NCBI GenBank assembly: GCA_041158505.1
Contig: JBEBBG010000007.1
Span: forward strand, 27,879 to 91,878
Source: Candidatus Parcubacteria bacterium
GTDB lineage: Bacteria > Patescibacteriota > Minisyncoccia > Phycocordibacterales > JAACPR01
Direction: 5' to 3'
Length of the DNA: 64,000 nt
A model generated the notes under the pieces. That model ran no database searches. It was not told where the DNA came from and saw only the letters and a program-made list of their open reading frames with translations. The position numbers and the translations under genes were made by a program. This document shows, in pieces, positions 1,931 to 17,488 of this stretch. Within the stretch, counting starts at the first letter, position 1. Each line of letters begins with the position of its first letter.

Positions 1931-2581
1931 TTACTGTGTGACGACGACTGACTGGAGCACGATTGGCTCAACAGGTACATCGCGTTGGTTTCGCTCGGCT
2001 TGTGAAATCGCCATCACCACATCCATTCCCTCAATCACACGTCCAAAGACTGCATGCTTTCCATCGAGGAAGGTGTTGTCTGCAACGTTAATGAAGAATT
2101 GGCTGCCGTTGGTGTTTGGTCCAGCATTTGCCATTGAAATCGTACCGGTCACATTTGAAAGGCCTGGCACAATTTCATCTGCAAACTTGTATCCTGGACC
2201 ACCCGTTCCCCACATTGCCTGCTTACTATCATCCTTCGTGAGCGGATCACCACCCTGGATCATAAATCCATCAATCACGCGGTGAAACTTTGTGTTGTCA
2301 TAGAACCCTTCTCCTGCGAGCTTCGCAAAGTTACTTGCTGTTTGTGGCGTTCTATCGCTATAAAGTTCAAGAACAATCGTTCCTTTATTTGTTGTAATCG
2401 TTGCTTGCATTGTTTTTTGTTCGGTTACTGCTAGTGGTTGCGTACTCGTTGCTGTGGTTGTAGCAACGTCTGCTGGCATCGTGGTTTCTTGTGGCGCATC
2501 TGCGGCTGGCTTGTAGAGGACCAGGACACCAATGAGCACAGCGACAAGGATGATTGCCGCAATTGCGACTGCTTGTTTCAT
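1931..2581 (-). CDS. Cyclophilin-type peptidyl-prolyl cis-trans isomerase with an N-terminal membrane anchor
   Basis: Contains FHRVIDGFMIQGGDP and the cyclophilin fold signature. An N-terminal hydrophobic helix is followed by a Thr-rich linker. Confidence 0.85.
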   Translation of the reverse strand: MKQAVAIAAIILVAVLIGVLVLYKPAADAPQETTMPADVATTTATSTQPLAVTEQKTMQATITTNKGTIVLELYSDRTPQTASNFAKLAGEGFYDNTKFHRVIDGFMIQGGDPLTKDDSKQAMWGTGGPGYKFADEIVPGLSNVTGTISMANAGPNTNGSQFFINVADNTFLDGKHAVFGRVIEGMDVVMAISQAERNQRDVPVEPIVLQSVVVTQ

Positions 2582-2598
2582 AACGGTGTGGGATGTAG

Positions 2599-2967
2599 TT
2601 ACTTTCCGGTAAAGAAGCGCTTGATGGCTCGACCGCCTCGTTTGTAGAGCGCATCTTTCTTACTCTGACTGCGGCGAATCACCTTGCTAATTTCGTCTTT
2701 GACTGCATCGATTGCTGCGGTTACGCTTCCAGCTTTTGCAGATGCGCGGTACACACGACCGTCCATCGTTGCATTTACTTCGGCGCGATACACGTCACCT
2801 TTACTGTGGTGTCGTGAATCAAGGGCAACTTCAACTTCTGCAAGAATTTCCTGATCACCTTGCGGCGCCAAAAACTTCTCAATCACCTGTAACTTCTCGT
2901 GGACCTGACGGCTAATATCTGGCGTCAAATCCACCTGTTTTGTTTTGATGTGAAAATTTACAGTCAT
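2599..2967 (-). CDS. hpf: Ribosome hibernation promoting factor / RaiA family
   Basis: 122 aa with the HPF/YfiA fold pattern (basic C-terminus). It sits next to translation genes. Confidence 0.75.
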   Translation of the reverse strand: MTVNFHIKTKQVDLTPDISRQVHEKLQVIEKFLAPQGDQEILAEVEVALDSRHHSKGDVYRAEVNATMDGRVYRASAKAGSVTAAIDAVKDEISKVIRRSQSKKDALYKRGGRAIKRFFTGK

Positions 2968-2987
2968 ACACTCATAGTATACTCTGC

Positions 2988-3218
2988 TTACCCCTCATCT
3001 GGAAGCTCGACTGAAAGCAGCTTTGATGGCGAATGATGCCCCGAGACAATGCGGATCTGGCCCGCCTCAGGAAAGTGCTCGCGAATGATTTCAAGAACCC
3101 GCGCATTTGCCATATTTCGCTCAGCGGGCTCCTTAATTCGAACAGAAACATGTGTGGCATCGAGCGCCTCGACCACCTCTTCTTTGGCATGAGCAACGAC
3201 CTTTACGTGAATATACAT
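2988..3218 (-). CDS. DUF167 (YggU-like) small protein. It is the internal-Met portion of the 177-aa ORF.
   Basis: MYIHVKVVAHAKEEVVEALDATHVSVRIKEPAERNMANARVLEIIREHFP...IRIVSGHHSPSKL matches the DUF167/YggU pattern (xKANxAL...IVSGxxSRxK). The upstream part of the ORF overlaps the tRNA/intron antisense and is not counted as coding. Confidence 0.5.
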   Translation of the reverse strand: MYIHVKVVAHAKEEVVEALDATHVSVRIKEPAERNMANARVLEIIREHFPEAGQIRIVSGHHSPSKLLSVELPDEG

Positions 3219-3361
3219 ACGCGTACTATACCCCGTTTGGCGGACAGGTCTAGACAGCTCCCCAATCGGTTGGTACGATAACGGGCACACCAGCTTTGTG
3301 GCGGCCACGCACACGTGCACGCCAAACCAAAGCTGGTGCAGGTTCTCCAAAAACCACATAT

Positions 3362-3692
3362 TCCCCTGTAGCTCAGCGGTAGAGCAATCGACTGTGTCAC
3401 AAGTGTTTAAACACAAAGACCATACGCAGCTTCCAGTACGAAAGTCTGGTCGAAAAACGAGGTGAATTGCTGGAAGCCCATACATGAAAGTGTACGGGTA
3501 ATCAGCAGCCAAGCCGTACATTTACGGAAGGTTCAGAGACTATCTCGAAAGAGAGTAGTTCGCATCACGCGCACGAAGCGCCTCGCACCTACGTTCAAGT
3601 AATTGAATAAGGTGATGATATAGTCCATCCCTAGAAGTAATTTTAGGATTAATGTAATCGATTGGCCGCAGGTTCGAATCCTGCCGGGGGAG
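3362..3692 (+). tRNA. tRNA-Asn(GUU), split by a group I intron. Exon 1 is 3362-3395, exon 2 is 3655-3692, with a G discriminator and no encoded CCA.
   Basis: Joined exons give UCCCCUGUAGCUCAGCGGUAGAGCAAUCGACUGU|UAAUCGAUUGGCCGCAGGUUCGAAUCCUGCCGGGGGAG. This is a canonical cloverleaf: 7-bp acceptor, GCUC/GAGC D-stem, AUCGA/UCGAU anticodon stem, anticodon loop CUGUUAA, and T-arm GCAGG-UUCGAAU-CCUGC. It is near-identical in layout to bacterial tRNA-Asn. Confidence 0.7.
3396..3654 (+). ncRNA. Group I self-splicing intron (259 nt) in the anticodon loop of tRNA-Asn, between anticodon nt 35 and 36
   Basis: The 5' exon ends in U (3395) and the intron ends in G (3654, omega-G). Conserved P7 elements are present: R-like GTTCAGAGACTA at 3530-3541 and S-like (GATG)ATATAGTCC at 3613-3626, which allow GACUA/UAGUC pairing. 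A possible IGS, GCAG at 3433-3436, is complementary to the exon CUGU. The intron is too short to carry an ORF. Confidence 0.6.
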
Positions 3693-5222
3693 CATAGAAG
3701 TGATTTTAGACCCAGAAGAAGCTTTTACCGCATTGGTAAAGGCTTTTTTTGGTTCGAAAGTATTTTCATCCAAAATGAGTTTTTCATAGAGCTTTCGAAC
3801 TGGTGTTTTTAGCTCGTATTCCACCTTTCCGTCTTTGAGACTGATGTGTTTGAAGAGATGCTTCAAAAGCATACGCTTTTCAGCAGGCGTTCTCTTTGAG
3901 TAAATTTCTTTTGCCCTTGAAGCCAATTCAAGGATATTGAGACCTATCTCAAAGTATTCAGCTTCCTGCGTCTTGAGGCGTTCTAGCTGGGTTGTAAGAG
4001 CCTTTTGCTCATCAATAAGCACTTTGTGTTTACCAGTCCAAAACTCATCTGAAATAACCCCTGAAAGCTTGTCATCATAAAGCCTGTCAATTTTTACCTG
4101 AACCGCTTTGTATTGGGAATTGAGGCTATTTAGGACTGACTCTTTGTAGGCAACTTCTTCTGAGTGATTTGCCTTTATCTTTTCCCTGATTTGTTCAACA
4201 TCAGTCTTGGTAAGCTTGGCAAAAACATCCATCACGTTTACCAAACCTGACTCGATTACTTCTTCACGAGTGTATTTCTTTTGCTTACAGTCTTTGTAGT
4301 GATTACAGTGACAGTAAACGTGACCTTTTTGTATTTCCGAAGTGATACCTCCTCCACACTCACCACAAGTAATCATCTTGGAGAACAGGAACTCCTTTCG
4401 AAGATAGAATGGTGCTTTCTTTCTAATCCTGATTTCTTGGATTTGGTCATAGGTCTCTTTTGTGATGAGTGGTTCGTGGTCACCTTTCATCAGTTTTCCT
4501 TTCCAAGTAAACGCACCGTAATTGAAAGTATCTCCAAGCAATCTCTCAATCTGACTCTTGTAGAGTTTCTTTCCGTATCGAGTCCTCACGCCACTATCAG
4601 TAGCCATTTTGAGCAGAGCTTTCATTGAGTACTGACCTGTGGCATATGACTCAAGCAATTTCTTTACTGCAAGATTGGTTTCTGGGTCTTTGATGAAATG
4701 CTTTCTACCTTTTTCACCAACACTTTGGTATCCATACTTGAAAGAGCCAGGGTACATCCCTTGAGAAGCTTTCTCGTTCAATCCTTTGTGCACTTCTTCG
4801 GATAGATTATTTGTGTAGAAGCGAGCAATAGCTACTTTCATATCCCAAACAAGATTCTCGTGAGCACGAGTATTCTTATTCACAATAAAATTCTCTTTGA
4901 CGAAGTGAATGGTTCTGTCAGAGCTTTCCTGAACCCAATCGTTTACGGTAGCCGCATCTTTGAGATTTCGAGTAAGACGGTCAATCTTTTCACACAGGAT
5001 ATTTTCAATATCGTGCTTAGATGCATACTCAAGCATTTCATTGAAGATTGTTCTTATTTGCTTACCACTTGCTGACTCACTAATGCGAAAGATTTTAGCG
5101 ACTTTGAAACCTTTCTTTTCTGCATAATCCTCAAGCAGTTTCTGTTGAGCATCGAGAGAATAACCTGTATCTTCTTGTTCTCTTGATGACACTCGACAAT
5201 AAATAACGCAATTTGACTTCAT
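3540..5222 (-). CDS. Large serine recombinase (resolvase domain, recombinase domain, zinc ribbon, coiled coil)
   Basis: The N-terminus IYCRVSSREQ carries the catalytic Ser of the resolvase fold. A CGECGG...CHC zinc ribbon and a long coiled-coil tail follow. The last ~55 codons read antisense through tRNA exon 2 and the intron P7-P9 region, so the true C-terminus is uncertain. The gene is AT-rich. Confidence 0.85.
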   Translation of the reverse strand: MKSNCVIYCRVSSREQEDTGYSLDAQQKLLEDYAEKKGFKVAKIFRISESASGKQIRTIFNEMLEYASKHDIENILCEKIDRLTRNLKDAATVNDWVQESSDRTIHFVKENFIVNKNTRAHENLVWDMKVAIARFYTNNLSEEVHKGLNEKASQGMYPGSFKYGYQSVGEKGRKHFIKDPETNLAVKKLLESYATGQYSMKALLKMATDSGVRTRYGKKLYKSQIERLLGDTFNYGAFTWKGKLMKGDHEPLITKETYDQIQEIRIRKKAPFYLRKEFLFSKMITCGECGGGITSEIQKGHVYCHCNHYKDCKQKKYTREEVIESGLVNVMDVFAKLTKTDVEQIREKIKANHSEEVAYKESVLNSLNSQYKAVQVKIDRLYDDKLSGVISDEFWTGKHKVLIDEQKALTTQLERLKTQEAEYFEIGLNILELASRAKEIYSKRTPAEKRMLLKHLFKHISLKDGKVEYELKTPVRKLYEKLILDENTFEPKKAFTNAVKASSGSKITSMLPRQDSNLRPIDYINPKITSRDGLYHHLIQLLERRCEALRARDANYSLSR

Positions 5223-5487
5223 AAATATATTTTAGCTTAGTTTTTGATAATACTCACCCCTTTTCCTAATGATTTCATAGGAAATAAGAGAGATGTTTAT
5301 GTAGCCAGAATTGTGATAGTGACCTCCAAAGTTCCTCCAGATAAGCTAGTCTTTTTGACTTGGCGTTTCGCTTCTCCTTATTTTCTTTGAGGTTGTATCG
5401 GAGCATATCCGATGCAGGTCAGACGGCTGGGTGGCAAGGGGGCAACCATTTTCCCAGCTTTCGCACCTGAACCTGATATGCAACTTA

Positions 5488-5530
5488 TTGTTTGGTTTTG
5501 AGATTGAGCCGTAGTCTCAAAACTTTTAGC
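5488..5530 (+). terminator. Intrinsic terminator (9-bp stem GTTTTGAGA/TCTCAAAAC followed by TTTTAGC) with no annotated upstream ORF
   Basis: The hairpin is read directly from the sequence. Confidence 0.4.
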
Positions 5531-6309
5531 AGACTTGTTTAGCCTCTTTGTCGTGAAAAGAGGGTTCTTCTGACATTGTGATTAGCTTGCTCTCGCAAGA
5601 CTCTGGAAAAGGCTCTCCGTCAGCCAGAGAAGAGCCTTTTTCAATTTCCTGCGAATTAGAAAGTCTATGCTTTTTAGCATCTTCAAAATCAAATTGAGCC
5701 AACAGGTCAAAGAAACCCGCTAGCTCGGTGATAGAATCGTTGTTTGATTTTGATTGGCTGACTATTTCCATATCGCTACCAACTGGAGCGAGAAATATGT
5801 CTGCCTAATACAAAACGCGAACCATTAGGACAAGACGCATTTCTGCATCTAAGAGTCCATCGGTTCGCGTTCCCAATCTTTCAAGTTTCAGTCTGGCAAT
5901 TGAGTTCCTCCGACATCAAAAGTGTTAGACTTGAAACCACTGAACTGGGTGTGGCTTAGCAATAGTATGTATTCAGTTGTAACTAAATTTTAGCACAGGA
6001 TTATGTGAGCTCAAGTGGAAAATACAGAGCAACACAAAAGGATTTATATGACTAGAAAAGGGTTCAATAGACCCATATAGTAAAAAGGTATTTTCTGTTA
6101 TAATTTGCAGGACAACTGAATATGTCGACCTAACCCTTAGGGATTTTCTCTAAGGTATGGTCAAAAACGCGACGAACATAAAAACCCCATCATTAGGGCG
6201 TTCGTCGCGTTGTATCTGGAAACGGATATAGAGACCTTCGGGTCTTCCTAGTGGTGGGATTTTTGTGTCTCAGCCCTAGGTATTATCAATAAAATCGCGA
6301 CGAACGATT

Positions 6310-6495
6310 ATGACTACAATAAATTTAGGTCTGTTTATTTGGGGCTTATTACTTACGCTCCAAGTAATGCAAAATATGAAGCGGATAGATAAGCTTAGTT
6401 GGGACTTGGCTCATAAAATGGACAAGCCAGAAGAAGAAACTCCAACTGAAAAGTTTATGCGTGAGAGAAAGGAGAAGACAGAAACTAAAGGGTAG
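6310..6495 (+). CDS. Small hypothetical membrane peptide (61 aa)
   Basis: One N-terminal transmembrane helix and a charged tail. It is convergent with, and overlaps by 11 nt, the HTH gene. Confidence 0.3.
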   Translation: MTTINLGLFIWGLLLTLQVMQNMKRIDKLSWDLAHKMDKPEEETPTEKFMRERKEKTETKG

Positions 6496-6886
6496 CTTTG
6501 GCAATTTTTTGAGCAAACATTTCATCAAACATCTTCTTACTCCTATCCATAGACTCACGGAGTTCCTCACTAATTTCCTGACTCTCAACTCTCTGGGAGA
6601 ACTCATTTTTATATTTACGCTCAAGCCACCACGCTGAGGCTTGCCAGCTTTTCTCAGAAGCCTTTTCGATGTTCTTGATGTGTCTTCTTTTACACTCAAT
6701 CTCTTTTTGTCTTATTTGTTCTGAAAAGTCTGAATTCTGACGCTTCCACAACGACAAAGTATCCTCGCTAATTCCAGCAAGGATTGAGGCATCACGTTGA
6801 GTGAGACCATCAGCAATAGCATCAAGAATTATCTTGATAGTAGTGGGTGTTGCCTTATATGATTTTGGAATAAGAGGCTTTGCCAT
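6485..6886 (-). CDS. HTH DNA-binding protein, terminase small subunit (Terminase_2)-like
   Basis: IKIILDAIADGLTQRDASILAGISEDTLSLWKRQNSDFSEQI...SWQASAWWLERKYKNEF resembles the phage TerS-type HTH. Its start lies 3 nt after the protease stop, so it is likely co-transcribed. Confidence 0.5.
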   Translation of the reverse strand: MAKPLIPKSYKATPTTIKIILDAIADGLTQRDASILAGISEDTLSLWKRQNSDFSEQIRQKEIECKRRHIKNIEKASEKSWQASAWWLERKYKNEFSQRVESQEISEELRESMDRSKKMFDEMFAQKIAKATL

Positions 6887-6888
6887 AT

Positions 6889-9180
6889 TTATTTGTTTTC
6901 AACTCTAACTTCAGATTCAACCCGTATCTTGATTGGAACCAGTGCGTCATACTTGTTCACTATTTTTGAGTAGACATCAATGGACTCCTCAGAGCTTTCA
7001 ACGGTCAAAACAACAGCAAACCTGATTTTCCTGTTCTTATATCGAGTACCTCTTTCAAAGGCGTGTATATGAAAGAAAGGGTTGTCTATGTTCTCGATTT
7101 TCTTTCCTAAAGTTCGTGTATCAACGCTGTCCCATTTCAGGTCGGCACGCAATTCGTCTTCTGGAGCATAGGGTGCAGGAGCAGAATCAGGCACGGGAAA
7201 TTCAGACTGTTCCCAACCTGCATCAAGGAGACTTTGTACTTGAGCCGATTCGGTTCTCAAGTCCAGCACCTGCTTGCGTTCACCTTTCTTACTAAAACGA
7301 TATTTCTTTGAATTTGGATACAGGGTCATTACCACTGACGAAGCTGTATAGTCGTCAGGACTTTGCGGGTCAATTGCCGTTGATACAGCAATAGTCCATC
7401 TGAAGTTTACTTTGCCTCGGTCAATTGCATCATCCCAAGGTATCGTAAATTCAGCATATTTTTTTGGAAGCAATTCACCTTTGTATATCAGGGTGTAAGA
7501 ATTGCTTTTACAGGTTACGATTTCATCTACTGTTTCAGCCAAAATACCGTGACCCGTTTCATTGCTATGCTTCTTCTCTTCGGAGTCAGCACTGTGAATG
7601 AGGAGTGCTCTTGCGACAAGGGGGTCAATAGCACCGTCACTGTATCCAACTAACTGTCCTGCATATCCAGCGACAATAGGACTTGCAAAGCTTGTGCCTT
7701 GATTCCAAGCTTTCTCATTCAAGTTATGTGCAACAAGATGGATAGGGTGCTGGTCGCATCCTCCAAACGCCAATAGGTCTGGCTTTAGTTTATTACCCTC
7801 ACGCCCAGGACCTTTACAGCTATAAGGAGCACGAATTATCTTCCCATCTTTCTTTGTGTAAGAACCGATTCCTAGACCATTTGCCATATCTGAGGGGGCT
7901 TGTATTCTTCCAGCTGAACCACTGAGATGTCCGTCATTTCCTACAGCTACCGTAAAGAGCACATTCAATTTCGCACTGAGTAAATCGCAGGCAAAAGTGA
8001 ATCGTGAAATCAAATCATCTACAATCGGTCCCTTTGGACCAAGGCTGAGGTTCCAAACTTTTATATGCGGATTGAGAGGGACTGTCTCTTCAATCTCATC
8101 AATGATTTCGTATAGGTCTGGGTCGGAGGTATTTTGAACAGGAAGTACACGGAAGCTTTTGACACTAACCTTTGGAGTAGGGAGAGTATCGCTTGCCGAA
8201 TAATTATTTATTGCACCAAAAAGAACTGCTCCTGAAACTTGAGTTCCGTGATTTATGAATGCATCCGCTGATGCTTCTGTTGTCAGGTCTTCATTCTCAA
8301 CAAAACCTTGTAGGTATGGACTATCTTCTTTCACACCACCATCGAAGATTCCCACTACAACATCAGCCTTTTCTCCTGATGCAGGCGTTGGTCCACCACT
8401 AATAGAGCCTCCTCGGCTTACAGTCGGCAAATCACGCAAATCCATCGTATGGAGCGTTCTTAGTGGGTTGTATTCCGCAACAGTAGCAACAGTCTTCTTG
8501 GTCCCATACAAGCTCACAAAGGTGATGCCAGATTCGTATTGTTTATAACGAACTCTTCCCAAATCTACTCCTGACTTCTTTAGAAGCTCAAGAAAGTTAT
8601 TGAGTGCTTCTTCTTTGTCTTTTTCAAAAGGATGCAGAACTGCTTCTAGTCGCCCCTCGGTCCAATCACTTGGAATCCCTAGAATTTGTTCTTCAGATTC
8701 AAGCGTATCCACTGATTTGATTGTTCTAACATCATACGCAAAGCCTTTTGTTACAAAGGCTTCTTCCTGGCTGATTTTTTGTTCAAGCTCATTCAAGCCA
8801 CGCTCAGTTGTTCTGACGAAAAACAATTTACCAGTTTCTTCAATACCGTCTTCCTCAGGAGAATTTTCACGCCAGATTCTTGAACCGATTTCTTCTACCT
8901 CACCATTTCTAGAAACCGCAGAGAAAAGGTCTCCAGGATAGTAACTTTTTGCTGAAAATTCAGGATGCATTCTCACACAAACAACGAATTCGTGTGGGAG
9001 CTTTTTATCCGCAGGGATAGTACTGAGCTTCTCTCGGGTCTGGGTGATGTCTGACAAAATTTTTGTTCTTGCCACATCATAGGAAAGAGCAGGCTCCTTT
9101 GAAGAGCCTCCGACTCTTTTCGTGATTGGTTTTGTATATATTTCTCCTTTGTAGAGAATTGGTCGGCGGTTATTTTCCAT
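6889..9180 (-). CDS. S8 family (subtilisin-like) serine peptidase, 763 aa, with extra N- and C-terminal domains
   Basis: The catalytic triad is in the correct order: VVVGIFDGGV (Asp), HGTQVSG (His) and GTSFASPIVAG (Ser). Confidence 0.85.
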   Translation of the reverse strand: MENNRRPILYKGEIYTKPITKRVGGSSKEPALSYDVARTKILSDITQTREKLSTIPADKKLPHEFVVCVRMHPEFSAKSYYPGDLFSAVSRNGEVEEIGSRIWRENSPEEDGIEETGKLFFVRTTERGLNELEQKISQEEAFVTKGFAYDVRTIKSVDTLESEEQILGIPSDWTEGRLEAVLHPFEKDKEEALNNFLELLKKSGVDLGRVRYKQYESGITFVSLYGTKKTVATVAEYNPLRTLHTMDLRDLPTVSRGGSISGGPTPASGEKADVVVGIFDGGVKEDSPYLQGFVENEDLTTEASADAFINHGTQVSGAVLFGAINNYSASDTLPTPKVSVKSFRVLPVQNTSDPDLYEIIDEIEETVPLNPHIKVWNLSLGPKGPIVDDLISRFTFACDLLSAKLNVLFTVAVGNDGHLSGSAGRIQAPSDMANGLGIGSYTKKDGKIIRAPYSCKGPGREGNKLKPDLLAFGGCDQHPIHLVAHNLNEKAWNQGTSFASPIVAGYAGQLVGYSDGAIDPLVARALLIHSADSEEKKHSNETGHGILAETVDEIVTCKSNSYTLIYKGELLPKKYAEFTIPWDDAIDRGKVNFRWTIAVSTAIDPQSPDDYTASSVVMTLYPNSKKYRFSKKGERKQVLDLRTESAQVQSLLDAGWEQSEFPVPDSAPAPYAPEDELRADLKWDSVDTRTLGKKIENIDNPFFHIHAFERGTRYKNRKIRFAVVLTVESSEESIDVYSKIVNKYDALVPIKIRVESEVRVENK

Positions 9181-9181
9181 A

Positions 9182-10315
9182 TTATTCTTGTTTAGCTATA
9201 TGGTACTGAACTCCACCTGGACTGAATCCTGTGATTTCGGCTAACTCTCTTACAGTGATTTCATTTCCCAACATCTGTTTAGCTAGTATGCAAAATTTTC
9301 CTTTGGTGTCTTTATCGTTTGTATATGCTTCTACGGCGTGAAGAATTGCCTTTGGCATATCCTCATCTTTCAAGACAACTCTACGCTTGATATTTTCAGC
9401 CAAACGACATAGGTCAGCAGGGCTTCTATTCACCAGTAACTCCGCTACTGCGGGCATAAAAGCTTCGTCTTTCTTGGACAAAAATTCTCCTAACTCGTTT
9501 TTTAGAATCTGAATTCTCTCATTCTGCTCTGGTAGACCTAGCTCAAGAACGTGGTCAAAACGTCTCCATATTGCTCGGTCCAAGAGTTCAGGGTGATTGC
9601 TTGTAGCAATAACTACCGATGAGACTGGCCACGATTCAAGCTCCATAAGCAAAACGTTCACAACTCTTTTGATTTCTCCCAAGTCAGTGGAGTCATCTCG
9701 TCTTTTAGCAATTGCATCAAACTCATCCAGCAAAAGAACAGCTGAACTTTGTCGGGCATATTCCAAAACTTTCTTTAGGTTTTGCCCCGTCTTTCCCAAT
9801 AGGCTTGAAATACTTGTAGACAAATCTAAAACTATCAAATTCTTATTCAAAGCTGATGCTATGTATCGAGCAAGCATCGTCTTGCCTGTACCAGGTAGTC
9901 CTGTGAGCAGGAGTCCTGTGGAAGGCTTGATACCTTTATCGAGCAAGTGAGATATTTTTTCTCTCTCGTGCAAAAAACTATCAACAACCTCTTTCAAAAC
10001 TGGGCTTAGAATTGGAAAGGTGTTGCGTTCAGTATCTGGAGGGAAAATAGTTGCCATCTCCAGTCGACTATCTGAATCAGTGGGGATAGGAGTGTTCACA
10101 CCTCGTGTGAAAGATGGGTTGAGAGAGTGGGAGCTTAGTGTAAAAATTATTTTCTTTGCCAACTCAGGCTCAGAAGCTTTTATCAATCGAGATAGATTGA
10201 GTGCATATGCTTCTACTTCGTCATTCTTCTTTTTCAGACCTGAAATAATCAGGTCAATCAGAGTCTTATCGTATGCTGAAACTTTAGTTGTTTTTTTGGT
10301 CATATGTAAATTCAC
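9182..10315 (-). CDS. Classic AAA+ ATPase with a C-terminal HTH
   Basis: Walker A is GLPGTGKT, Walker B is LLLDEFDA, and the second region of homology is SNHPELLDRAIWRRFD. The C-terminus ITVRELAEITGFSPGGVQYHI is HTH-like. Its stop is 2 nt before the protease start. Confidence 0.85.
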   Translation of the reverse strand: MNLHMTKKTTKVSAYDKTLIDLIISGLKKKNDEVEAYALNLSRLIKASEPELAKKIIFTLSSHSLNPSFTRGVNTPIPTDSDSRLEMATIFPPDTERNTFPILSPVLKEVVDSFLHEREKISHLLDKGIKPSTGLLLTGLPGTGKTMLARYIASALNKNLIVLDLSTSISSLLGKTGQNLKKVLEYARQSSAVLLLDEFDAIAKRRDDSTDLGEIKRVVNVLLMELESWPVSSVVIATSNHPELLDRAIWRRFDHVLELGLPEQNERIQILKNELGEFLSKKDEAFMPAVAELLVNRSPADLCRLAENIKRRVVLKDEDMPKAILHAVEAYTNDKDTKGKFCILAKQMLGNEITVRELAEITGFSPGGVQYHIAKQE

Positions 10316-10357
10316 TAAACAAAACTACATAAATACCCTTATATACATACGATATCT

Positions 10358-11149
10358 TTGTTTAGTAAATTCATTATATTATCTATAACTAAACAAGTAC
10401 AGTATTTTCTGTGGAAAAGTGCACGCTATACCAGTAATTCTTGCATCTGTCCTAATGCAATATTTGGAAACGGATATTCCTCTGCCCAATTCACGGTTCG
10501 TAAATCGTCTACAAGAGCGAGCATGCAAATATTAATAGAGCCAATTATAAACGATAAGATCCAACAGGACATAGTACAAGGTGAAAAATTTTTCCTGAGC
10601 TTGCGCGTGACAAATAAAACAATTACTCCTAGTGAAAATTTTACAATTGAATCAATGGTCTTGTTTTATAAACAGTCGGATATTGTAGACGATTGTGAAA
10701 ATAAAAGTTATTTTATAAGAAAATTAAACCCTGATGAATCTTTAACATTAGAAATAGGGTATTTTGTCGCAATTGTACATGGATTAATCAGTTTAAAAAT
10801 AAATGCTCGGTCAGAAAATAATACTCCAATAAGCTTTTTACAATCCCAGCATAAAATTGGAACTAAGCAAATAATCAACAATCCTAACGAATGGATTGAT
10901 TTTCTGTGGGTAGAAAGTAAGAGTGAGAACAATCAGAAAAAAACTAATATTATTACTTTGTGGTTGAACATATTATTGCTTTTTATTGCATCCATTCAAA
11001 TACAGGAAAAGATTAATATTCAAGATTTCTTTAAAAACGTAATCTTTAAATCTAATACATACAAAGAATCAGATTTTCTAGTATTAATTTTAAGTATATT
11101 GATTTCATTAAGTGCTTTAATTTTCTTTAAAAAGAAAGATAGATTCTAA
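10358..11149 (+). CDS. Hypothetical protein, very AT-rich (~28% GC), with a C-terminal TM helix. The true start may be the internal Met near 10520.
   Basis: Only the ORF itself; no recognisable domain. Confidence 0.3.
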   Translation: MFSKFIILSITKQVQYFLWKSARYTSNSCICPNAIFGNGYSSAQFTVRKSSTRASMQILIEPIINDKIQQDIVQGEKFFLSLRVTNKTITPSENFTIESMVLFYKQSDIVDDCENKSYFIRKLNPDESLTLEIGYFVAIVHGLISLKINARSENNTPISFLQSQHKIGTKQIINNPNEWIDFLWVESKSENNQKKTNIITLWLNILLLFIASIQIQEKINIQDFFKNVIFKSNTYKESDFLVLILSILISLSALIFFKKKDRF

Positions 11150-11176
11150 AAATAAGCCAAATATAACAACCCACTG

Positions 11177-11208
11177 CACTGGTTCGAGCCAAACGCAGTC
11201 CGCGGAGC
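11177..11208 (+). repeat. Cassette-boundary repeat, copy 1 (CACTGGTTCGAGCCAAACGCAGTCCGCGGAGC)
   Basis: First of 10 co-oriented copies of the 32-34-nt motif. It precedes the first cassette. Confidence 0.8.
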
Positions 11209-11271
11209 ATCTGAAAAATACCTTTTAATCAATAACGAGTAGAATTTCAAAGCTTTTGCTATACTGCCGAT

Positions 11272-11982
11272 ATGAAATTCGATAAAACTAAACTAGAGGA
11301 GTATCTCAAAGCATTCTTTCAAGAATACGAAGTAAACGGTCTGCTTTCTGTGTACCTGTGGGGTTCAATCACTACAGGCGAATTTGCTATTGAGACAAGT
11401 GATATAGACATTATCGCAATAGTTAGACCAGAGCATTCAATTGACCAATCTGCTATCAAAGAAAAACTTAATGCATGTTTTGATGATTTCAAACATTTCG
11501 GATTTAACGTAATCAGAGAAGATGAACTAACAGAAGGAGTCGGGAAAGAAAGTTCAATTACCACGGTGATACATCCACGGATACTTCTTGCTGATATGCG
11601 AGATTGGAAGCACGTGTTTGGAAATAACTACTCAATTAGCAGCTTTACGACGAACCCTCCACTGCCAGATGAATTAATCGGTTTGGAAATAAAGAAAATA
11701 ATCAGAGACGGTTGGAACGATTCAGCAAATGTGGGAGACAATTTTGTACAATATCATCTCAAGGGAATTATGCGAATCATTTACTATACTCAACTCAAGC
11801 GTCATGAACACTTCCCTTTTTCTTACACAAACATAAGACAGAAAGCCAACAAAGAAGAAGCCAATCTAATTGACTTTTTTTATGAGAACAAAGAAAAGGG
11901 ATACAGTAAACAACACCTCTTAGAGAATAAGTTTTTAGTAGACTCCTATATAAAGAAAATGATAGAGGAGTTTACAAAATAG
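11272..11982 (+). CDS. Nucleotidyltransferase-fold protein (ANT/AadA/Lnu-like, Pol-beta superfamily)
   Basis: LWGSITTGEFAIETSDIDIIAIV matches the GS-x9-13-DxD nucleotidyltransferase signature. Its 236-aa size is similar to aminoglycoside and lincosamide nucleotidyltransferases. Confidence 0.55.
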   Translation: MKFDKTKLEEYLKAFFQEYEVNGLLSVYLWGSITTGEFAIETSDIDIIAIVRPEHSIDQSAIKEKLNACFDDFKHFGFNVIREDELTEGVGKESSITTVIHPRILLADMRDWKHVFGNNYSISSFTTNPPLPDELIGLEIKKIIRDGWNDSANVGDNFVQYHLKGIMRIIYYTQLKRHEHFPFSYTNIRQKANKEEANLIDFFYENKEKGYSKQHLLENKFLVDSYIKKMIEEFTK

Positions 11983-11994
11983 TCACAAACTCAA

Positions 11995-12026
11995 CACTGG
12001 TTCGAACTAAACCAAGTCCGCGGAGC
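11995..12026 (+). repeat. Cassette-boundary repeat, copy 2
   Basis: CACTGGTTCGAACTAAACCAAGTCCGCGGAGC. Confidence 0.8.
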
Positions 12027-12094
12027 GCGGTTGACAAAGTAAAAATCTAGTGATAATTTCCAAACGGTCTTAGTTCAACAAAAACCAAACGTCA

Positions 12095-12430
12095 ATGACA
12101 GGAATCAGAAAACCATCGGACGGAATCGTCGCGCTTACCTGTGAACCCGATGCATCCCCCGTTGCACAGCTAGCCGATACAGCAGAAGCCACTGCTTGGA
12201 CCGAAGAGGTGCTCGCGGCAATTACAAAGGAGCTCACAGATCCACGTAATGCCTACCGCGCACCAGAACATCCCCTGCGAGCTTACCTGGATTCACTCAA
12301 GCTGCTGTTGGAGAAACTTCAGACGAGGCAGCCCGTCGAGCTCTGGGAAGTGCATCGGGAGTTAGCAAGGGCAAACTCTCAGTTTCACGACGACAGTTTT
12401 ACCGAAGCGTGCACGCTGCTGTTCGGATAA
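12095..12430 (+). CDS. Hypothetical cassette protein (111 aa, ~55% GC)
   Basis: An ORF between two repeats, followed by a terminator. Confidence 0.4.
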   Translation: MTGIRKPSDGIVALTCEPDASPVAQLADTAEATAWTEEVLAAITKELTDPRNAYRAPEHPLRAYLDSLKLLLEKLQTRQPVELWEVHRELARANSQFHDDSFTEACTLLFG

Positions 12431-12501
12431 ATTCACAGCCGCCCAACATGCTACCCCTACTTATCAAGCAAGGGGTACGCTTTTTCTTTTCTACCCCACC
12501 A

Positions 12502-12533
12502 CACTGGTTCGAGCTAGCTCAAGTCCGCTGAGC
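12502..12533 (+). repeat. Cassette-boundary repeat, copy 3
   Basis: CACTGGTTCGAGCTAGCTCAAGTCCGCTGAGC, preceded by a hairpin and TTTTTCTTTTCTACCCC. Confidence 0.8.
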
Positions 12534-12674
12534 TCTTGTAAATAAAAAATATAATTTAGTCTCTACATACTATAGTTCTTGATACTCACCTATTTTTGTT
12601 TAGTTTTCCACATACACAAATGGACCCATGATTAATGAGGCCATTTATGTATAAAACTACTTATACAAGTTATA

Positions 12675-13052
12675 CTATTGAACAAGCATAACGCCGCTAT
12701 GTACGCCTAAGTTGTAGGCTGTTCTAAGTGCTTCGGCTAGTGAGTTGGCCATAACACTGGTGCGTTGACCTGAAGTGTTTATAAACTCATACACGTGCGC
12801 CCCTTGTCCCATCGAAACTTGGCCACCAGCAATAGAAGTATCACCTCTCACAAGCATAACGCCACTATGTACGCCTAAGTTGTAGGCTGTTCTAAGTGCT
12901 TCAGCTGATGAATTAGCAACAACACTAGTGCGTTGATTTGAACTGTTTATGAACTCATACGTAGAAGCTTCCGCAAAATTTGCAGATCCTAGAGTTAGCA
13001 TAAGCGCACCTAACATAAACAATCCCGATGCAACATTTGTTTTTTTATTCAT
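12675..13052 (-). CDS. Secreted hypothetical protein with an internal ~56-aa tandem duplication
   Basis: Signal peptide MNKKTNVASGLFMLGALMLTLGSANFA. The two repeats are YEFINSSNQRTSVVANSSAEALRTAYNLGVHSGVMLV and YEFINTSGQRTSVMANSLAEALRTAYNLGVHSGVMLV. This is the only minus-strand gene in the array. Confidence 0.5.
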   Translation of the reverse strand: MNKKTNVASGLFMLGALMLTLGSANFAEASTYEFINSSNQRTSVVANSSAEALRTAYNLGVHSGVMLVRGDTSIAGGQVSMGQGAHVYEFINTSGQRTSVMANSLAEALRTAYNLGVHSGVMLVQ

Positions 13053-13533
13053 CTTTTTTTATTATTATTTTTTAATAAGCAAAGATATCTACTACATTTT
13101 TTGATAAAATATCAAAATGCATAGTCTTCAATATTTGAGAGTTACAGATAGTTTTTATAAATAACTGTAATAGACAAAATAGATTTTCAACCACTAATCT
13201 ATATTTTCGATAGATGCTCTTGCTACATATAAAAGTGTATACAATATATTGACAAAAAGCAAGTTTAATTGCATTATGACACACAAATACCAACCATACT
13301 AATCTCACCCTTTCTATTTACCCTCTTCCAATTCAAAGTTCTGTTTTTATTTCTCCTCTCCCGAACTAGTTCAAACGGAAGTAGACTCATTAGCACGCGT
13401 GGGTCTTTTTCTTTCTTGTTGAACGATACGAGTACACACTCAGCGCGGCATACACCCATCCTTGACTTCCCCACCTTTTAAAACTAATGTCGTTTAAGAT
13501 CCTAGACACACCACACAACCCACTTACAGAATC

Positions 13534-13800
13534 ATGAGTGATACCGTTACACGCATTGGTGACATGAACGCAATCCGCTGGCTTCTCGTCATGCGCCAAA
13601 GTGATGGCGACATTATTGTTCGGATTGTACAAGAGGGCGAAGTCGTCGGAGGAGAAGACTATGGCAATCCAATGGTTCCTTCTGCGGAAGTCGAATTCTG
13701 CCTTAGTGGCGGCAGGAGCAAGCACACTCGTGTAGCACTGCTTGCCTTAATGGAAGCAATGGAGCGAGATAACCAAGAACGCCCCATACCCTACGACTGA
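13534..13800 (+). CDS. Hypothetical cassette protein (88 aa)
   Basis: An ORF with a terminator at 13831-13867. Confidence 0.35.
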   Translation: MSDTVTRIGDMNAIRWLLVMRQSDGDIIVRIVQEGEVVGGEDYGNPMVPSAEVEFCLSGGRSKHTRVALLALMEAMERDNQERPIPYD

Positions 13801-13874
13801 ACCGCGAGAAGCAGCCCAAATACTCACACAGCCTCTGAACCCCAAACGTCAGAGGTGTTTTCTTTTCTACCCCA

Positions 13875-13906
13875 CACTGGTTCGAGCGAGTTGCAGTCCG
13901 CGGAGC
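13875..13906 (+). repeat. Cassette-boundary repeat, copy 4
   Basis: CACTGGTTCGAGCGAGTTGCAGTCCGCGGAGC. Confidence 0.8.
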
Positions 13907-13978
13907 ACTTTGACAATTTCTTAATTTAGTTTTAAAGTTTTTTCTAGACAAAAAATAACATCAACCTGAAAGGAGGCA

Positions 13979-14356
13979 TTGATGCCAGAAGATATTTACG
14001 ATTTAGAGGGTGAGGCAAGCTCCTTTGGAGATTACATTAACGCTTGGTACTTGCCAATTAGCAACCTTATGTCACGGCGAAAACAATGGGATGAAGCAAC
14101 CCTATTCAACTGGATAGAAGCTCATCCCATACAATCATTCACCTTGAGGTACGGGGGTGGCAAAAGTTCTTCAATGGAATGGTGTTTCACCAAATACCCC
14201 ACTCGAGTAGCTCGCCTAGATAGACTCTCCGAACTAGCCAACTCGTGCAAGGACATCACGGAGTTTAAGCGTATCTGCAATGAACTTTTTCGATTGGTGA
14301 ATGGTAGAGTTGCGTTTCCTGGAGAATTGTACAACCCCGACCTACTTGAATTGTGA
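13979..14356 (+). CDS. Hypothetical cassette protein (125 aa)
   Basis: An ORF followed by a terminator and repeat. Confidence 0.4.
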   Translation: MMPEDIYDLEGEASSFGDYINAWYLPISNLMSRRKQWDEATLFNWIEAHPIQSFTLRYGGGKSSSMEWCFTKYPTRVARLDRLSELANSCKDITEFKRICNELFRLVNGRVAFPGELYNPDLLEL

Positions 14357-14418
14357 AACAAGCCTCGCGAAGCTTCGACTTCGGTTGGGACTTTCGTGTT
14401 TTTCTTTCTACCCCACCA

Positions 14419-14450
14419 CACTGGTTCGGACTAGCTCAAGTCCGCGGAGC
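14419..14450 (+). repeat. Cassette-boundary repeat, copy 5
   Basis: CACTGGTTCGGACTAGCTCAAGTCCGCGGAGC. Confidence 0.8.
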
Positions 14451-14503
14451 CCTGACTTAAATCTTATCTTTCAATTGTATTCGGAACTGCTAAGATTAAT
14501 TAC

Positions 14504-15112
14504 ATGAAAATCATTTTGACCATAATTACAGTGCTATGCATTTGTGCTGCTTCTATTTTATATTTTTCACCGAAAACAGAGACTGAAACAACAATGAGTA
14601 CTTGGAAAACGTACACAAATACATTTTATGGTTTTACCCTTAAGTATCCTCGTGACATGTTTGTACTAGGGTGGCCCCTCGATTTTGAAATACACCAACC
14701 CTTACCAACTGAAAATGGTTACAATAATCAAATATTTATTACTCCATCAAGAACGATAAGCGATGTAGATCGTGATTACATGGCAATTCGTTTTGCCGAA
14801 GATGTGCGCAATGATACCCGCTCAATTCAGCAGCATTTCAAAGAAGATGCCCGATTCGTGACACACAATGTAGAAGATATAAGAACAATTAACGGTGTTG
14901 ATTTTATTTTTATAAGAACTGAACAAGGTGATTCAATCGCATATTTCAAAGTAAATGGCTACATTTTAAGCGCTGAGATGGACAAAAATTTCCCCAGCCA
15001 GGAACTGTTCATGGAAATCCTAGACACATTTGAAGTTGTGCCCAAAACTAAGCAAGAGATAGATTCTAATGTTTTTCCAAAAGGACCACCTAAAATTGAT
15101 GGCAGCATTTAG
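14504..15112 (+). CDS. Hypothetical membrane-anchored/secreted cassette protein (202 aa)
   Basis: An N-terminal TM/signal sequence. The gene is AT-rich. Confidence 0.4.
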   Translation: MKIILTIITVLCICAASILYFSPKTETETTMSTWKTYTNTFYGFTLKYPRDMFVLGWPLDFEIHQPLPTENGYNNQIFITPSRTISDVDRDYMAIRFAEDVRNDTRSIQQHFKEDARFVTHNVEDIRTINGVDFIFIRTEQGDSIAYFKVNGYILSAEMDKNFPSQELFMEILDTFEVVPKTKQEIDSNVFPKGPPKIDGSI

Positions 15113-15158
15113 AATTGACTCAATATTCTAGCTTGGTCAACATTTTAATACCCCACCG

Positions 15159-15190
15159 CACTGGTTCGAGCGAGCGTCAGTCCGCAAAGC
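15159..15190 (+). repeat. Cassette-boundary repeat, copy 6 (variant ending CGCAAAGC)
   Basis: CACTGGTTCGAGCGAGCGTCAGTCCGCAAAGC. Confidence 0.75.
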
Positions 15191-15253
15191 TACCATTTGA
15201 CATATTATATTAAATATGTTTTTATTTTGTAAATTCAACAGAAGGAGTAACAA

Positions 15254-15640
15254 TTGAAAAGAAAGAAGAAAACAAAAGGAGTTTTGGGAGACCAAGGAGT
15301 AAAGATCAAGCAGCCAGTGCCAACAACAACCATTTCTCAAGAGGGGATTGCCTCCAGAAAACCACTGAGAAGATTTGGTATCAACTTCAGGCACAGAGGA
15401 CACTACTTCTGGTTTCTGGTTTCGACAACAATCTTGCTTGCAAGCGTTGTCGCCAGTGGTGTCGGCGGTAATCCAGTTTGGATTTCCATGGCTGGACTCT
15501 TTTTCCTCCAATCTAGCCTGGCGGCTGTTTTCGATACCAGAATGGGCACACGGGAGACCAGGTTATTCTCGGTTGACTGCATATGGTTCAACGGCCTGAT
15601 GGGAGGGATTTGCATCTTTATCACGAAAATATTCTTTTAA
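15254..15640 (+). CDS. Hypothetical membrane cassette protein (128 aa)
   Basis: Predicted TM helices. Confidence 0.35.
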   Translation: MKRKKKTKGVLGDQGVKIKQPVPTTTISQEGIASRKPLRRFGINFRHRGHYFWFLVSTTILLASVVASGVGGNPVWISMAGLFFLQSSLAAVFDTRMGTRETRLFSVDCIWFNGLMGGICIFITKIFF

Positions 15641-15730
15641 TGATTTGCCGATTTTTCAAGATAAATCGGAAGAGGCCCCTGATTACGTTACGTAATTCAC
15701 GGGGCTTTCGTGTTTTTCTTTTCTACCCCA

Positions 15731-15762
15731 CACTGGTTCGAGCGAGCGTCAGTCCGCGGAGC
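15731..15762 (+). repeat. Cassette-boundary repeat, copy 7
   Basis: CACTGGTTCGAGCGAGCGTCAGTCCGCGGAGC. Confidence 0.8.
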
Positions 15763-15835
15763 AAATATTGACTTAATCAAAAATAAGTGCTATAAAAAAT
15801 ACAACTGTTTTTTCCAATTCAACCCCCTTTTAACA

Positions 15836-16393
15836 ATGAAAACATTTCTGGTAACAGACAGGTTCTCTGAGTACCTACAGGGGGTCAAAGACCTCCAAGC
15901 AAGAAACCACAAGGACGTCGTCGGGACGAGCGAGCGAGGATTCCTAACCTGCCAGTTTTCAGTTGAAGAAATCGGCCGATTTGCTAGCGAAGCTGGCATT
16001 ATCGTCGTGACAGACGATAATGGGAGTCGAGTTCTCGGCTACAACATCCTCCTGACCATCGAGCGGACTCTCACCTACCCTGCGTACAGAGGTTTGGTGC
16101 ATGCTTACCAAGAGCTGCGTCCTGAATGCGATTTGTCAAAGGTGCTGTTGGCACGACAGTACTGCGTTGACGAAAGTGCAAGAGGTGGCCCTGCGGTGAA
16201 GTCTCTATACGACGTCATGCGGTCAAAGGTGTGCATTCCTCACGGGTACACATACTCAATCGGTGAAATCGATGAGCGCAACCGCATCAGCATGGTGGCA
16301 GCAAGAAGACTCCTGGGTTACACATTTATCGGCTCTTACCAGTCCGATGGAATAACCTGGAACATCGGAGAACGTCTTGAAATCCCTGCTTGA
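15836..16393 (+). CDS. Hypothetical cassette protein (186 aa from the internal Met MKTFLVTDR)
   Basis: The ORF-track start at 15710 lies inside the preceding repeat/terminator, so the Met at 15836 was chosen. Confidence 0.4.
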   Translation: MKTFLVTDRFSEYLQGVKDLQARNHKDVVGTSERGFLTCQFSVEEIGRFASEAGIIVVTDDNGSRVLGYNILLTIERTLTYPAYRGLVHAYQELRPECDLSKVLLARQYCVDESARGGPAVKSLYDVMRSKVCIPHGYTYSIGEIDERNRISMVAARRLLGYTFIGSYQSDGITWNIGERLEIPA

Positions 16394-16469
16394 TGTCGAC
16401 GACAGTTTCAACCCCGCCCAGTAGCGCAAGCGAACGGCGGGGTTCATCTTTTTTATTTCTACCTCATCA

Positions 16470-16500
16470 CACAGGTTCGAACCAACCCAAGTCCACAGAT
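16470..16500 (+). repeat. Cassette-boundary repeat, copy 8 (degenerate)
   Basis: CACAGGTTCGAACCAACCCAAGTCCACAGATC. Confidence 0.55.
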
Positions 16501-16544
16501 CAAAATTGACTAAAATATAAAATATCTATAGCGTGTGATGGAGC

Positions 16545-16877
16545 ATGAAAGAACCTCTACCAGACATAACCCTGGAGGTGTGGCGAGACAAGGAACTCAT
16601 GTACCATTGCCGTACACACTTCAACAAAATTAAGCAGACTCAAAACCCTGCTCCCGTCCCCACCATTGACCAGTTGTTGACACTCATTACCAGCGTAATC
16701 AACTCAACTGACTCGATGATTATGCCAATACCAGAAACTGCTATCGATGAAAGATTTAAGCCTGTTGATGTTCAGGTTATAAACCAAAGAGAGCATCCAT
16801 TGGAAAGCGGGGACTTGGAAGCAGTAAAGGAGTGCGTCTTGCAATCCGAAGCAAATTGGTTTGATGAGAGTTTGTAA
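16545..16877 (+). CDS. Hypothetical cassette protein (110 aa)
   Basis: An ORF between repeats. Confidence 0.4.
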   Translation: MKEPLPDITLEVWRDKELMYHCRTHFNKIKQTQNPAPVPTIDQLLTLITSVINSTDSMIMPIPETAIDERFKPVDVQVINQREHPLESGDLEAVKECVLQSEANWFDESL

Positions 16878-16943
16878 TATTTTAAACTAAACCCTTGTAG
16901 CCGCGTCGACTTTCCACAGTTGCGTGGTTTTTCTTTTCTATTC

Positions 16944-16976
16944 CACGCTGATTCAAACCAACCTCAGTCCGCGGAG
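16944..16976 (+). repeat. Cassette-boundary repeat, copy 9 (degenerate)
   Basis: CACGCTGATTCAAACCAACCTCAGTCCGCGGAG. Confidence 0.55.
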
Positions 16977-17035
16977 ACCTTGTAAAGCAACGTAAAAAAA
17001 ATTTATTTAACAAATAATTTTGATAAAATTCTCTT

Positions 17036-17314
17036 ATGAAGAAAAATTTTAAATCACAGGGAGCAGTAAAACTATTTCCACAAAAAGGTGGATGGGTGTA
17101 TTTGCCAGTAAAACAAACTTATTCTGATTTAGGAATTACAAAACCCAAATGGGGTTTGGTTCCAGCAACAATTACAATCGGAAACACTACTTGGAAAAAA
17201 TCACTTTTACCAATGGGAGACGAAACTTTATTCATTGCTTTAAATGAAAAAGTAAGAAAAGCTGAAAATATAAAAATTGGAGATACAATAACAGCTACTT
17301 TTACATTAGATTAG
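17036..17314 (+). CDS. DUF1905-like small protein
   Basis: KGGWVYLPV...GLVPATITIGNTTWKKSLLPMGDETLFIALNEKVRKAENIKIGDTITATFTLD matches the DUF1905 pattern. Confidence 0.5.
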   Translation: MKKNFKSQGAVKLFPQKGGWVYLPVKQTYSDLGITKPKWGLVPATITIGNTTWKKSLLPMGDETLFIALNEKVRKAENIKIGDTITATFTLD

Positions 17315-17399
17315 TTCTGAAGTACTAGATTCGGAAGAAACCCCTGATTACGTAAGGTAATTCAACGGCTTTCGTGTTTCTCTTTTCTACCCCACCGCA

Positions 17400-17428
17400 C
17401 TGGCTTGATCCAGCCTCAGCTGCTTGTA
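17400..17428 (+). repeat. Cassette-boundary repeat, copy 10 (degenerate; last in the array)
   Basis: CACTGGCTTGATCCAGCCTCAGCTGCTTG. Confidence 0.5.
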
Positions 17429-17488
17429 ACTATTTACAATTCAGTATTTTTATGTTTTTATACTGCCTGGCTATTGTACCCACACATC

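Follow-up and report, generated by a model that had tools for sequence, protein, structure and literature searches.

The window analysed here is a 64,000-nt stretch of a contig from a Candidatus Parcubacteria bacterium (JBEBBG010000007.1, positions 27,879 to 91,878), and all unlabelled coordinates refer to it. Close to its start, the minus strand carries an ATPase gene, a protease gene and a gene for a helix-turn-helix (HTH) protein that resembles the small subunit of phage terminases (TerS). It is highly probable, in our assessment, that the first two are a known IetAS pair carried as the cargo of a small parcubacterial integrative island, and that the third gene belongs to the island backbone and lies outside the defence system. 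A preliminary description of this DNA had instead presented all three genes as one candidate defence module. Its coordinates for the three minus-strand open reading frames (ORFs), 9182-10315, 6889-9180 and 6485-6886, are exact, and the low-GC island that it noted is borne out by a GC content of 0.40-0.43 in the three genes, compared with 0.49-0.50 in the flanks. The intergenic gaps, given there as 2 and 3 nt, are in fact 1 nt between ATPase and protease (TAA-T-ATG) and 2 nt between protease and HTH gene (TAA-AT-ATG). The three genes are the following:

9182-10303, minus strand: ietA, AAA+ ATPase, 373 aa (extendable to a GTG at 10315)
6889-9180, minus strand: ietS, S8 subtilase, 763 aa
6485-6886, minus strand: TerS-like HTH gene, 133 aa, assigned to the backbone of the integrative element

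The ATG at 10303 is most likely the start of ietA, because it is favoured both by an alignment of 49 homologues and by the genes called in public records of identical contigs (373 aa). A scan of 5200-10700 for promoters and terminators gave signals no higher than shuffled expectation and nothing decisive, and a megablast search of 3000-13000 against E. coli genomes returned zero matches.

The identity of the pair is carried by family-specific hidden Markov models (HMMs). The ATPase matched the IetA model of PADLOC-DB (PDLC02196, 374 positions) at 1.7e-85 over its full length (residues 16-375), and the protease matched the IetS model at 1.1e-62. By comparison, the best non-IetA PADLOC model for the ATPase was TRIP13, at merely 6e-18, and the best non-Iet models for the protease were many orders of magnitude weaker. 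These matches, together with published work on homologues, argue that the window pair belongs to a family that already has a name and experimental validation. The suggestion that the ATPase and the protease form a defence or abortive-infection module is thus well placed as far as sequence goes. The further suggestion that they constitute a new candidate system does not hold, since IetAS has already been named and PADLOC or DefenseFinder would label both genes.

Gene order points the same way. The adjacent, co-directional arrangement of ietA and then ietS, here with a gap of 1 nt, recurs in five of the related loci used for comparison (L166, L167, L169, L171 and L172; L numbers designate such loci throughout), and the abutting A-then-S order is that of plasmid loci of Rhizobium and Enterococcus. 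The plasmid IetAS loci consist of two genes, the first for an AAA ATPase and the second for an S8 peptidase. The pair is co-inherited, the closest IetAS locus being L166 (95/91% identity for IetA/IetS), followed by L167 (87/85%) and L169 (81/76%). Both proteins are patchily distributed among bacteria of the candidate phyla radiation (CPR), Bacteroidota and plasmids. Of the 29 best IetS matches, 23 have a longest contig equal in size to that of an IetA match. In L167, a 36-nt direct repeat (5454-5489 and 9301-9336; 83% identity) brackets a 77-aa gene, ietA and ietS, which suggests that the ietAS pair may move as a discrete cassette; the repeat-bracketed genes are followed there by a type II restriction-modification system (an Eco57I-like methylase plus XhoI).

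The ATPase matched the Pfam AAA family (PF00004) at 1.3e-28, with 100.5 bits over residues 135-260. Its motifs are intact, comprising Walker A (G135LPGTGKT), Walker B (D193-E194), the sensor-1 residue N236 and R247/R248, and Walker A and B, sensor-1 and the arginine fingers are invariant in the alignment of IetA homologues. Sequence searches of the PDB returned no solved IetA or IetS, and the closest solved relatives of IetA were classic AAA+ unfoldases of the Cdc48/p97 type. By its sequence, IetA is a classic-clade AAA+ ATPase. An AlphaFold model built from the alignment (predicted local distance difference test, pLDDT, 85; predicted template-modelling score, pTM, 0.83) begins with a bundle of three helices, continues with the AAA module and ends in an HTH of three helices. 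The C-terminal HTH had been proposed beforehand; its Pfam match is weak (HTH_24, E=0.0028), whereas the AlphaFold model supports it with helices at residues 331-348, 351-358 and 362-370 (pLDDT ~90).

The protease matched Peptidase_S8 at 1.5e-29 over residues 273-545. The catalytic D-H-S triad recognized in the preliminary description corresponds to D280, H311 and S497, which, together with N415, are invariant across ~50 IetS homologues. The N-terminus is hydrophilic and lacks a signal peptide, so far as can be judged from the sequence. IetS is predicted to be a cytosolic S8 subtilase with three parts:

residues ~1-265: propeptide-like region
residues 273-545: catalytic domain
residues ~555-750: C-terminal beta-sandwich

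The AlphaFold model, likewise built from the alignment (pLDDT 85, pTM 0.87), shows an alpha/beta N-terminal region, a subtilase core and an all-beta C-terminal domain. Of the accessory regions noted earlier, the N-terminal one (~1-265) is indeed conserved, and the C-terminal extension measures ~218 aa rather than ~190. These regions had been described as domains of unknown function. In plasmid IetS homologues from Rhizobium, Agrobacterium, Enterococcus and actinobacteria, however, the alignment covers 95-99% of the 763 residues, and the N- and C-terminal regions are therefore family architecture. The N-terminal one looks like a ferredoxin fold of the kind found in subtilase propeptides, the C-terminal one like a beta-sandwich.

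The kinship with Avs/AVAST, CHAT- or Lon-type systems suggested for the pair was rejected on domain evidence, the family being IetAS. For Avs/AVAST, nSTAND3 scored 20.8 bits vs a cut-off of 27.2 and NACHT 19.5 vs 26.7, and no PADLOC Avs model matched; the strong PF00004 match (100.5 bits) and the Cdc48/p97-type relatives also tell against it. A housekeeping protease and ATPase acting in secretion or protein quality control, for example as a mycosin/EccA-like pair, is an exceedingly improbable explanation. The preliminary description had named such a locus as the alternative that would refute it, and that alternative is itself effectively refuted: the genes lie in a low-GC mobile element, their distribution is patchy, no secretion genes are found nearby, and generic HMMs score far below those dedicated to IetA and IetS. 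The ESX/type VII mycosin-EccA module was set aside for the same absence of neighbouring secretion genes and the mobile-island location, together with the hydrophilic, signal-less N-terminus of IetS.

The first role found for IetAS was the stabilisation of plasmids by a toxin-antitoxin pair, with the protease as the toxin and the ATPase as the antitoxin; protease activity is needed for its defence function, ietA mutants proved uncloneable, a helicase-bearing variant (ietHAS) exists, and the anti-phage mechanism is still unknown (PMC13069673). A homologous pair maintains the integrative island SGI1 (Salmonella Genomic Island 1) (PMC5006074), and the IetAS system of B. cereus causes abortive infection, with the SPbeta protein YosG as the trigger (10.1101/2022.08.27.505566). 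By analogy, IetS would be the toxin and effector of the window pair, a toxic protease neutralised by active IetA, and IetA would be its antitoxin and controller. IetA may form a hexamer that binds IetS and regulates it in the manner of an unfoldase, and the propeptide-like N-terminal region of IetS would be a likely regulatory handle. A phage protein, as YosG of SPbeta does for the B. cereus system, would free the toxicity of IetS, and infected cells would halt growth before phage release, amounting to abortive infection. The same toxin-antitoxin logic would make loss of the carrier costly, so that the pair would stabilise the island too.

The third gene is a different matter. The backbone of the proposed element, to which it is assigned, runs, from the outer edge inwards, as large serine recombinase, 81-aa ORF, LOOT RNA and TerS-like HTH gene. 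A serine recombinase had been placed directly beside the three genes; it is indeed nearby, but the 81-aa ORF and the LOOT RNA intervene between it and the HTH gene. These features and the two putative ends of the element are as follows:

3362-3694, plus strand: tRNA-Asn(GUU), the integration site (exon 1 at 3362-3395, group I intron at 3396-3654, exon 2 at 3655-3694)
3540-5222, minus strand: large serine recombinase (integrase); Resolvase 2e-25, Recombinase 1.1e-12, Zn_ribbon_recom 6.6e-06, phrog_95 integrase 3.2e-71
5526-5771, minus strand: 81-aa ORF, backbone; 75% identity over 81 aa in L005, at the same position between HTH gene and recombinase
6127-6246, plus strand: LOOT RNA (Rfam RF03000), antisense to the backbone genes; 81.8 bits vs a gathering threshold of 46.4, full model 1-121
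10436-10524, minus strand: distal block of ~90 nt, putative left attachment site (attL); nhmmer 87-88 bits

The 133-aa HTH protein gave only a sub-threshold HTH_28 match in Pfam. Among PHROG families it matched phrog_4102, "terminase small subunit", at 1.3e-19, and in 7 of 10 distant homologue loci the gene directly downstream encodes a large terminase. The TerS-like label given earlier is therefore right. Its 134 close homologues, mostly 60-87% identical, come nearly all from CPR metagenomes, and the sequence identical to it carries the annotation Candidatus Parcubacteria.

If the trio were a true three-component system, with the TerS-like protein serving IetAS as a sensor of phage DNA or packaging or as a transcriptional regulator, the two should travel together. 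We fetched and examined 161 non-self loci with homologues of the 133-aa protein, and an IetS homologue was found in none of them (0/161). Conversely, no homologue of the 133-aa protein was found within 7 kb of IetAS in the closest IetAS loci, L166, L167 and L169, and in L167 and L169 ietS is followed by small ORFs that have no domains and no similarity to the 133-aa protein. The HTH gene adjoins at least seven other, unrelated types of cargo. At the DNA level, the window and L005 are homologous over the HTH gene (6859-6507, 84%) and over the region of LOOT, 81-aa ORF and recombinase (6313-5088, 79%); this homology ends ~27 nt inside the HTH ORF, at its 5' end, and does not cover ietS. From these co-occurrence data and the homology breakpoint it follows that the trio is not a conserved unit, and the proposed TerS-like sensor partner failed the co-occurrence test. 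A three-component system would fit the close spacing of ietS and the HTH gene, the genuine TerS homology of the third protein, and the precedent that IetAS can gain essential parts, as with the helicase of ietHAS (PMC13069673), and yet we consider it very unlikely on the above evidence. The tight 2-nt spacing is attributable to the position of the cargo in this one element, and the HTH gene is predicted to be a component of the integrative-element backbone and not of IetAS. As such, the TerS-like protein may be the DNA-binding factor of the element, involved either in excision directionality and regulation or in a packaging hijack in the style of phage-inducible chromosomal islands (PICIs), with element sequences near LOOT and the attachment sites as its probable targets. 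Its gene would be co-transcribed with ietAS only because the cargo abuts the TerS start codon.

The element appears to be inserted at a tRNA gene interrupted by an intron. The group I intron (Rfam Intron_gpI, 80.8 bits) is 259 nt long and lies between anticodon positions 35 and 36, and L012 and L086 have intact tRNA-Asn genes to which the two exons align without a break. The intron-split gene escapes ARAGORN, and brute-force splicing with this program was uninformative; the split tRNA was typed through alignment to intact tRNA-Asn genes in sibling loci. As expected of a serine-recombinase integrative element, a recombinase with Resolvase, Recombinase and Zn-ribbon domains is found at the island edge next to tRNA-Asn. 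With the recombinases of L005 and L012 it shares 50-51% identity, with those of L166, L167 and L169 24-27%. Its ORF crosses the tRNA 3' exon in antisense and then ~115 nt of the intron before its stop, and because of this course into the intron its last ~40 codons are probably fortuitous; the window recombinase has 560 aa vs 516-520 aa in its closest relatives. A similar overlap with the tRNA 3' end, of 13-40 nt, is seen for the recombinase genes of L005, L167 and L169.

At the other side, the distal block occurs only in the window, L005 (3921-4010) and L012 (5489-5576), at an equivalent position in each, and the recombinases of these loci are ~50% identical. It opens with a stretch resembling a tRNA 3' end and oriented like tRNA-Asn, and its hairpin repeats 17 nt of hairpin 3 of LOOT (6213-6229 vs 10461-10477). 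The block is the probable attL. Looking for a duplicate of the tRNA 3' end, we found only the gene itself. Taken together, the element would span ~3655-10524 (~6.9 kb), at the 3' exon of tRNA-Asn, with IetAS as its sole cargo.

Related loci suggest how such elements are built. The HTH gene is followed by a co-oriented serine recombinase of 516-572 aa in 8/8 close loci with enough downstream sequence, and beyond these recombinases lies a tRNA-Asn(GTT), a tRNA-Glu(CTC) or a tmRNA gene; the recombinase gene ends right at the 3' end of this RNA gene or runs into it. LOOT is situated between HTH gene and recombinase in 8 of 9 close loci as well as in the window. It is placed 100-1700 nt downstream of the TerS-like gene, ahead of the recombinase, and its orientation relative to the HTH gene in L009, L012, L086 and L087 is inverted compared with the window, L005, L010, L011 and L089. 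The LOOT positions are L005 8619-8738, L009 10399-10522, L010 11048-11172, L011 4571-4695, L012 10399-10519, L086 3910-4029, L087 10421-10542, L089 12034-12154 and L166 6964-7088. Upstream of the HTH gene, the cargo is different from locus to locus:

window: IetAS
L005: PDC-M68B/DUF2326 plus MC6 (ABC-3C system)
L008 and L010: PIN-TPR-GreABC
L009: essentially none
L011: AriA/NsnB-like AAA_15 ATPase
L012: AlwI endonuclease plus LexA-fused Dam methylase
L086: EcoRII-C, Dcm and GmrSD_N
L087: Panacea-like protein
L089: MzaB-like ATPase

The sibling elements, as predicted from gene content, thus keep the backbone and swap defence systems in the slot that is occupied here by IetAS. The tRNA-Asn site itself, which lies beside DUF167/PF1765-like, HPF, fmt and def genes (window 2282-3360, L167 15364-15439, L169 13891-13963), is occupied in related genomes by other islands whose serine recombinases are 24-27% identical, and it appears to be a recurrent integration hotspot.

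The content of the sibling slots also bears on what the pair does for its carrier. IetAS could here be mainly an addiction module that stabilises the element by post-segregational killing, rather than a means of anti-phage immunity; this would agree with the first description of IetAS as a plasmid-stability toxin-antitoxin, with the SGI1 homologue that maintains an integrative island, and with a small host element that would otherwise be easily lost. We regard this as possible but doubtful. The sibling slots hold restriction-modification and other defence systems and not classical addiction modules only, which points towards selection for defence; protection against phage is known for IetAS homologues, and the addiction and defence roles are not exclusive of each other.

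The backbone raises another question. PICIs, and the Staphylococcus aureus pathogenicity islands (SaPIs), encode TerS homologues and carry defence genes. The island could accordingly be a minimal, PICI-like phage satellite whose TerS-like protein redirects the packaging of a helper phage, with IetAS as a payload against competing phages. An integrase and a TerS homologue are both present, the latter without a large terminase gene (TerL) and next to the integrase, in an island of 7-9 kb with a slot for defence cargo. Neither a replication or primase module nor a master repressor was found among the backbone ORFs with Pfam and PHROG, and there are no capsid-remodelling genes; apart from integrase and TerS-like gene the backbone consists of the 81-aa ORF (for which Pfam, PHROG and PADLOC gave no match) and LOOT only. 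Since 6.9 kb is also small in comparison with any known packaging unit, and no helper phage is known, we think a satellite of this kind unlikely, less so than the three-component system and more so than the addiction module.

The preferred reading, an IetAS cargo in a small integrative island, also has points that weigh against it. (i) Toxicity, anti-phage activity and the interaction of IetA with IetS are extrapolated from homologues, and the plasmid systems are 25-30% identical. (ii) In L166, LOOT directly follows ietS and there is no HTH gene; therefore, the backbone is not invariant. (iii) The boundaries of the element are inferred, because no empty site or circular junction was recovered; exact-protein look-ups of the two genes that flank the element, aimed at an empty site or a strain variant, gave identical contigs only. 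(iv) The gap between ietS and the HTH gene is 2 nt, no terminator or promoter was detectable between the two genes, and the HTH protein is therefore probably co-expressed with IetAS here, so that a local functional link between the two is conceivable.

As to the wider meaning, IetAS is an already-known system, dense defence repertoires have already been surveyed in CPR bacteria (PMC12259885), and the finding of the pair as such is mostly tidy rather than surprising. The locus would show how a bacterium with an ultrasmall genome gains defence through a tiny serine-recombinase island, with a single cargo slot that is filled differently in each relative. What is of more interest lies to the side of IetAS: two novel observations, namely the conserved backbone of TerS-like gene, LOOT and serine recombinase with its swappable slot and a ten-copy repeat array next to the element, and also the group I intron that interrupts the target tRNA-Asn. 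For LOOT, an orphan RNA family, the islands supply a recurring genomic setting, with a TerS-like gene on one side and a serine integrase on the other. As long as the way IetAS works at the molecular level is unexplained, mutagenesis has two concrete handles here, the conserved propeptide-like N-terminal domain of IetS and the HTH at the end of IetA. More speculatively, the TerS-like gene, LOOT and the serine recombinase may define an undescribed family of CPR mini-islands (~4-9 kb; at tRNA-Asn, tRNA-Glu or tmRNA) that are satellite-like carriers of defence, with LOOT as a regulatory RNA or a packaging or recombination site and IetAS transcriptionally fused to the TerS-like gene. We would give this extended picture only a small chance of being right as a whole; if it were, island mobilisation and abortive infection would be co-regulated.

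The repeat array lies just outside the element, at 11157-17432 on the plus strand, where ten copies of a ~55-nt repeat (D1) have the core CACTGGTTCGAGC-N6/7-AGTCCGCGGAGC. Each copy stands after the stop codon of a small ORFan gene, preceded by a hairpin and a T-run and followed by a TTGAC...TATAAT-like promoter. The array looks cassette-like, with predicted terminator-core-promoter repeats separating ORFan genes. D1 as an integron attC site was rejected, since RNAalifold found no conserved hairpin, and D1 was not found in any other fetched locus or in IMG/VR. The second cassette (11272-11982, plus strand) encodes a 236-aa protein of nucleotidyltransferase fold (NTP_transf_2, 1.7e-4; a weak PADLOC PDC-S09 match, 6e-5), which may be a further defence or toxin-antitoxin component. 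The sole minus-strand gene of the array (12675-13052) is a 125-aa ORF with a signal-peptide-like N-terminus and an internal 111-nt tandem duplication (12682-12792 and 12850-12960; 88% identity).

Among known systems, the window pair is most readily compared with the founding IetAS pair of Agrobacterium pTiC58, with which it shares gene order, abutting ORFs, sizes (~373 plus 740-765 aa) and domain architecture; IetS of Rhizobiaceae plasmid homologues aligned over 99%. It differs in that the plasmid versions are ~25-30% identical and that the pair here sits in a chromosomal serine-recombinase island of a CPR bacterium and not on a conjugative plasmid. With respect to the anti-phage IetAS systems (Gao et al. 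2020; B. cereus m1293, E. coli ECOR52), the PADLOC models built for the family match here, and the expected mode of action, by analogy, would be abortive infection upon a phage-protein trigger, with the protease active site required. SgiAT (S026/S025) of SGI1 is likewise an IetAS homologue on an integrative mobilisable island that it stabilises. SGI1 has a tyrosine integrase and is ~43 kb in size, in contrast to the window element of ~6.9 kb with a large serine recombinase. The SNF2 helicase variant ietHAS (Liu-DS4) shows that an essential third gene can be recruited by IetAS, whereas the window has a TerS-like HTH gene in place of the helicase, one that is not conserved alongside IetAS. Finally, PICIs, SaPIs and P4-like satellites resemble this element as small islands at tRNA genes that combine an integrase, a TerS homologue and a variable slot for defence genes; they differ from it in that the present element has no replication, repressor or capsid-redirecting genes, uses a serine instead of a tyrosine integrase and carries a LOOT RNA.

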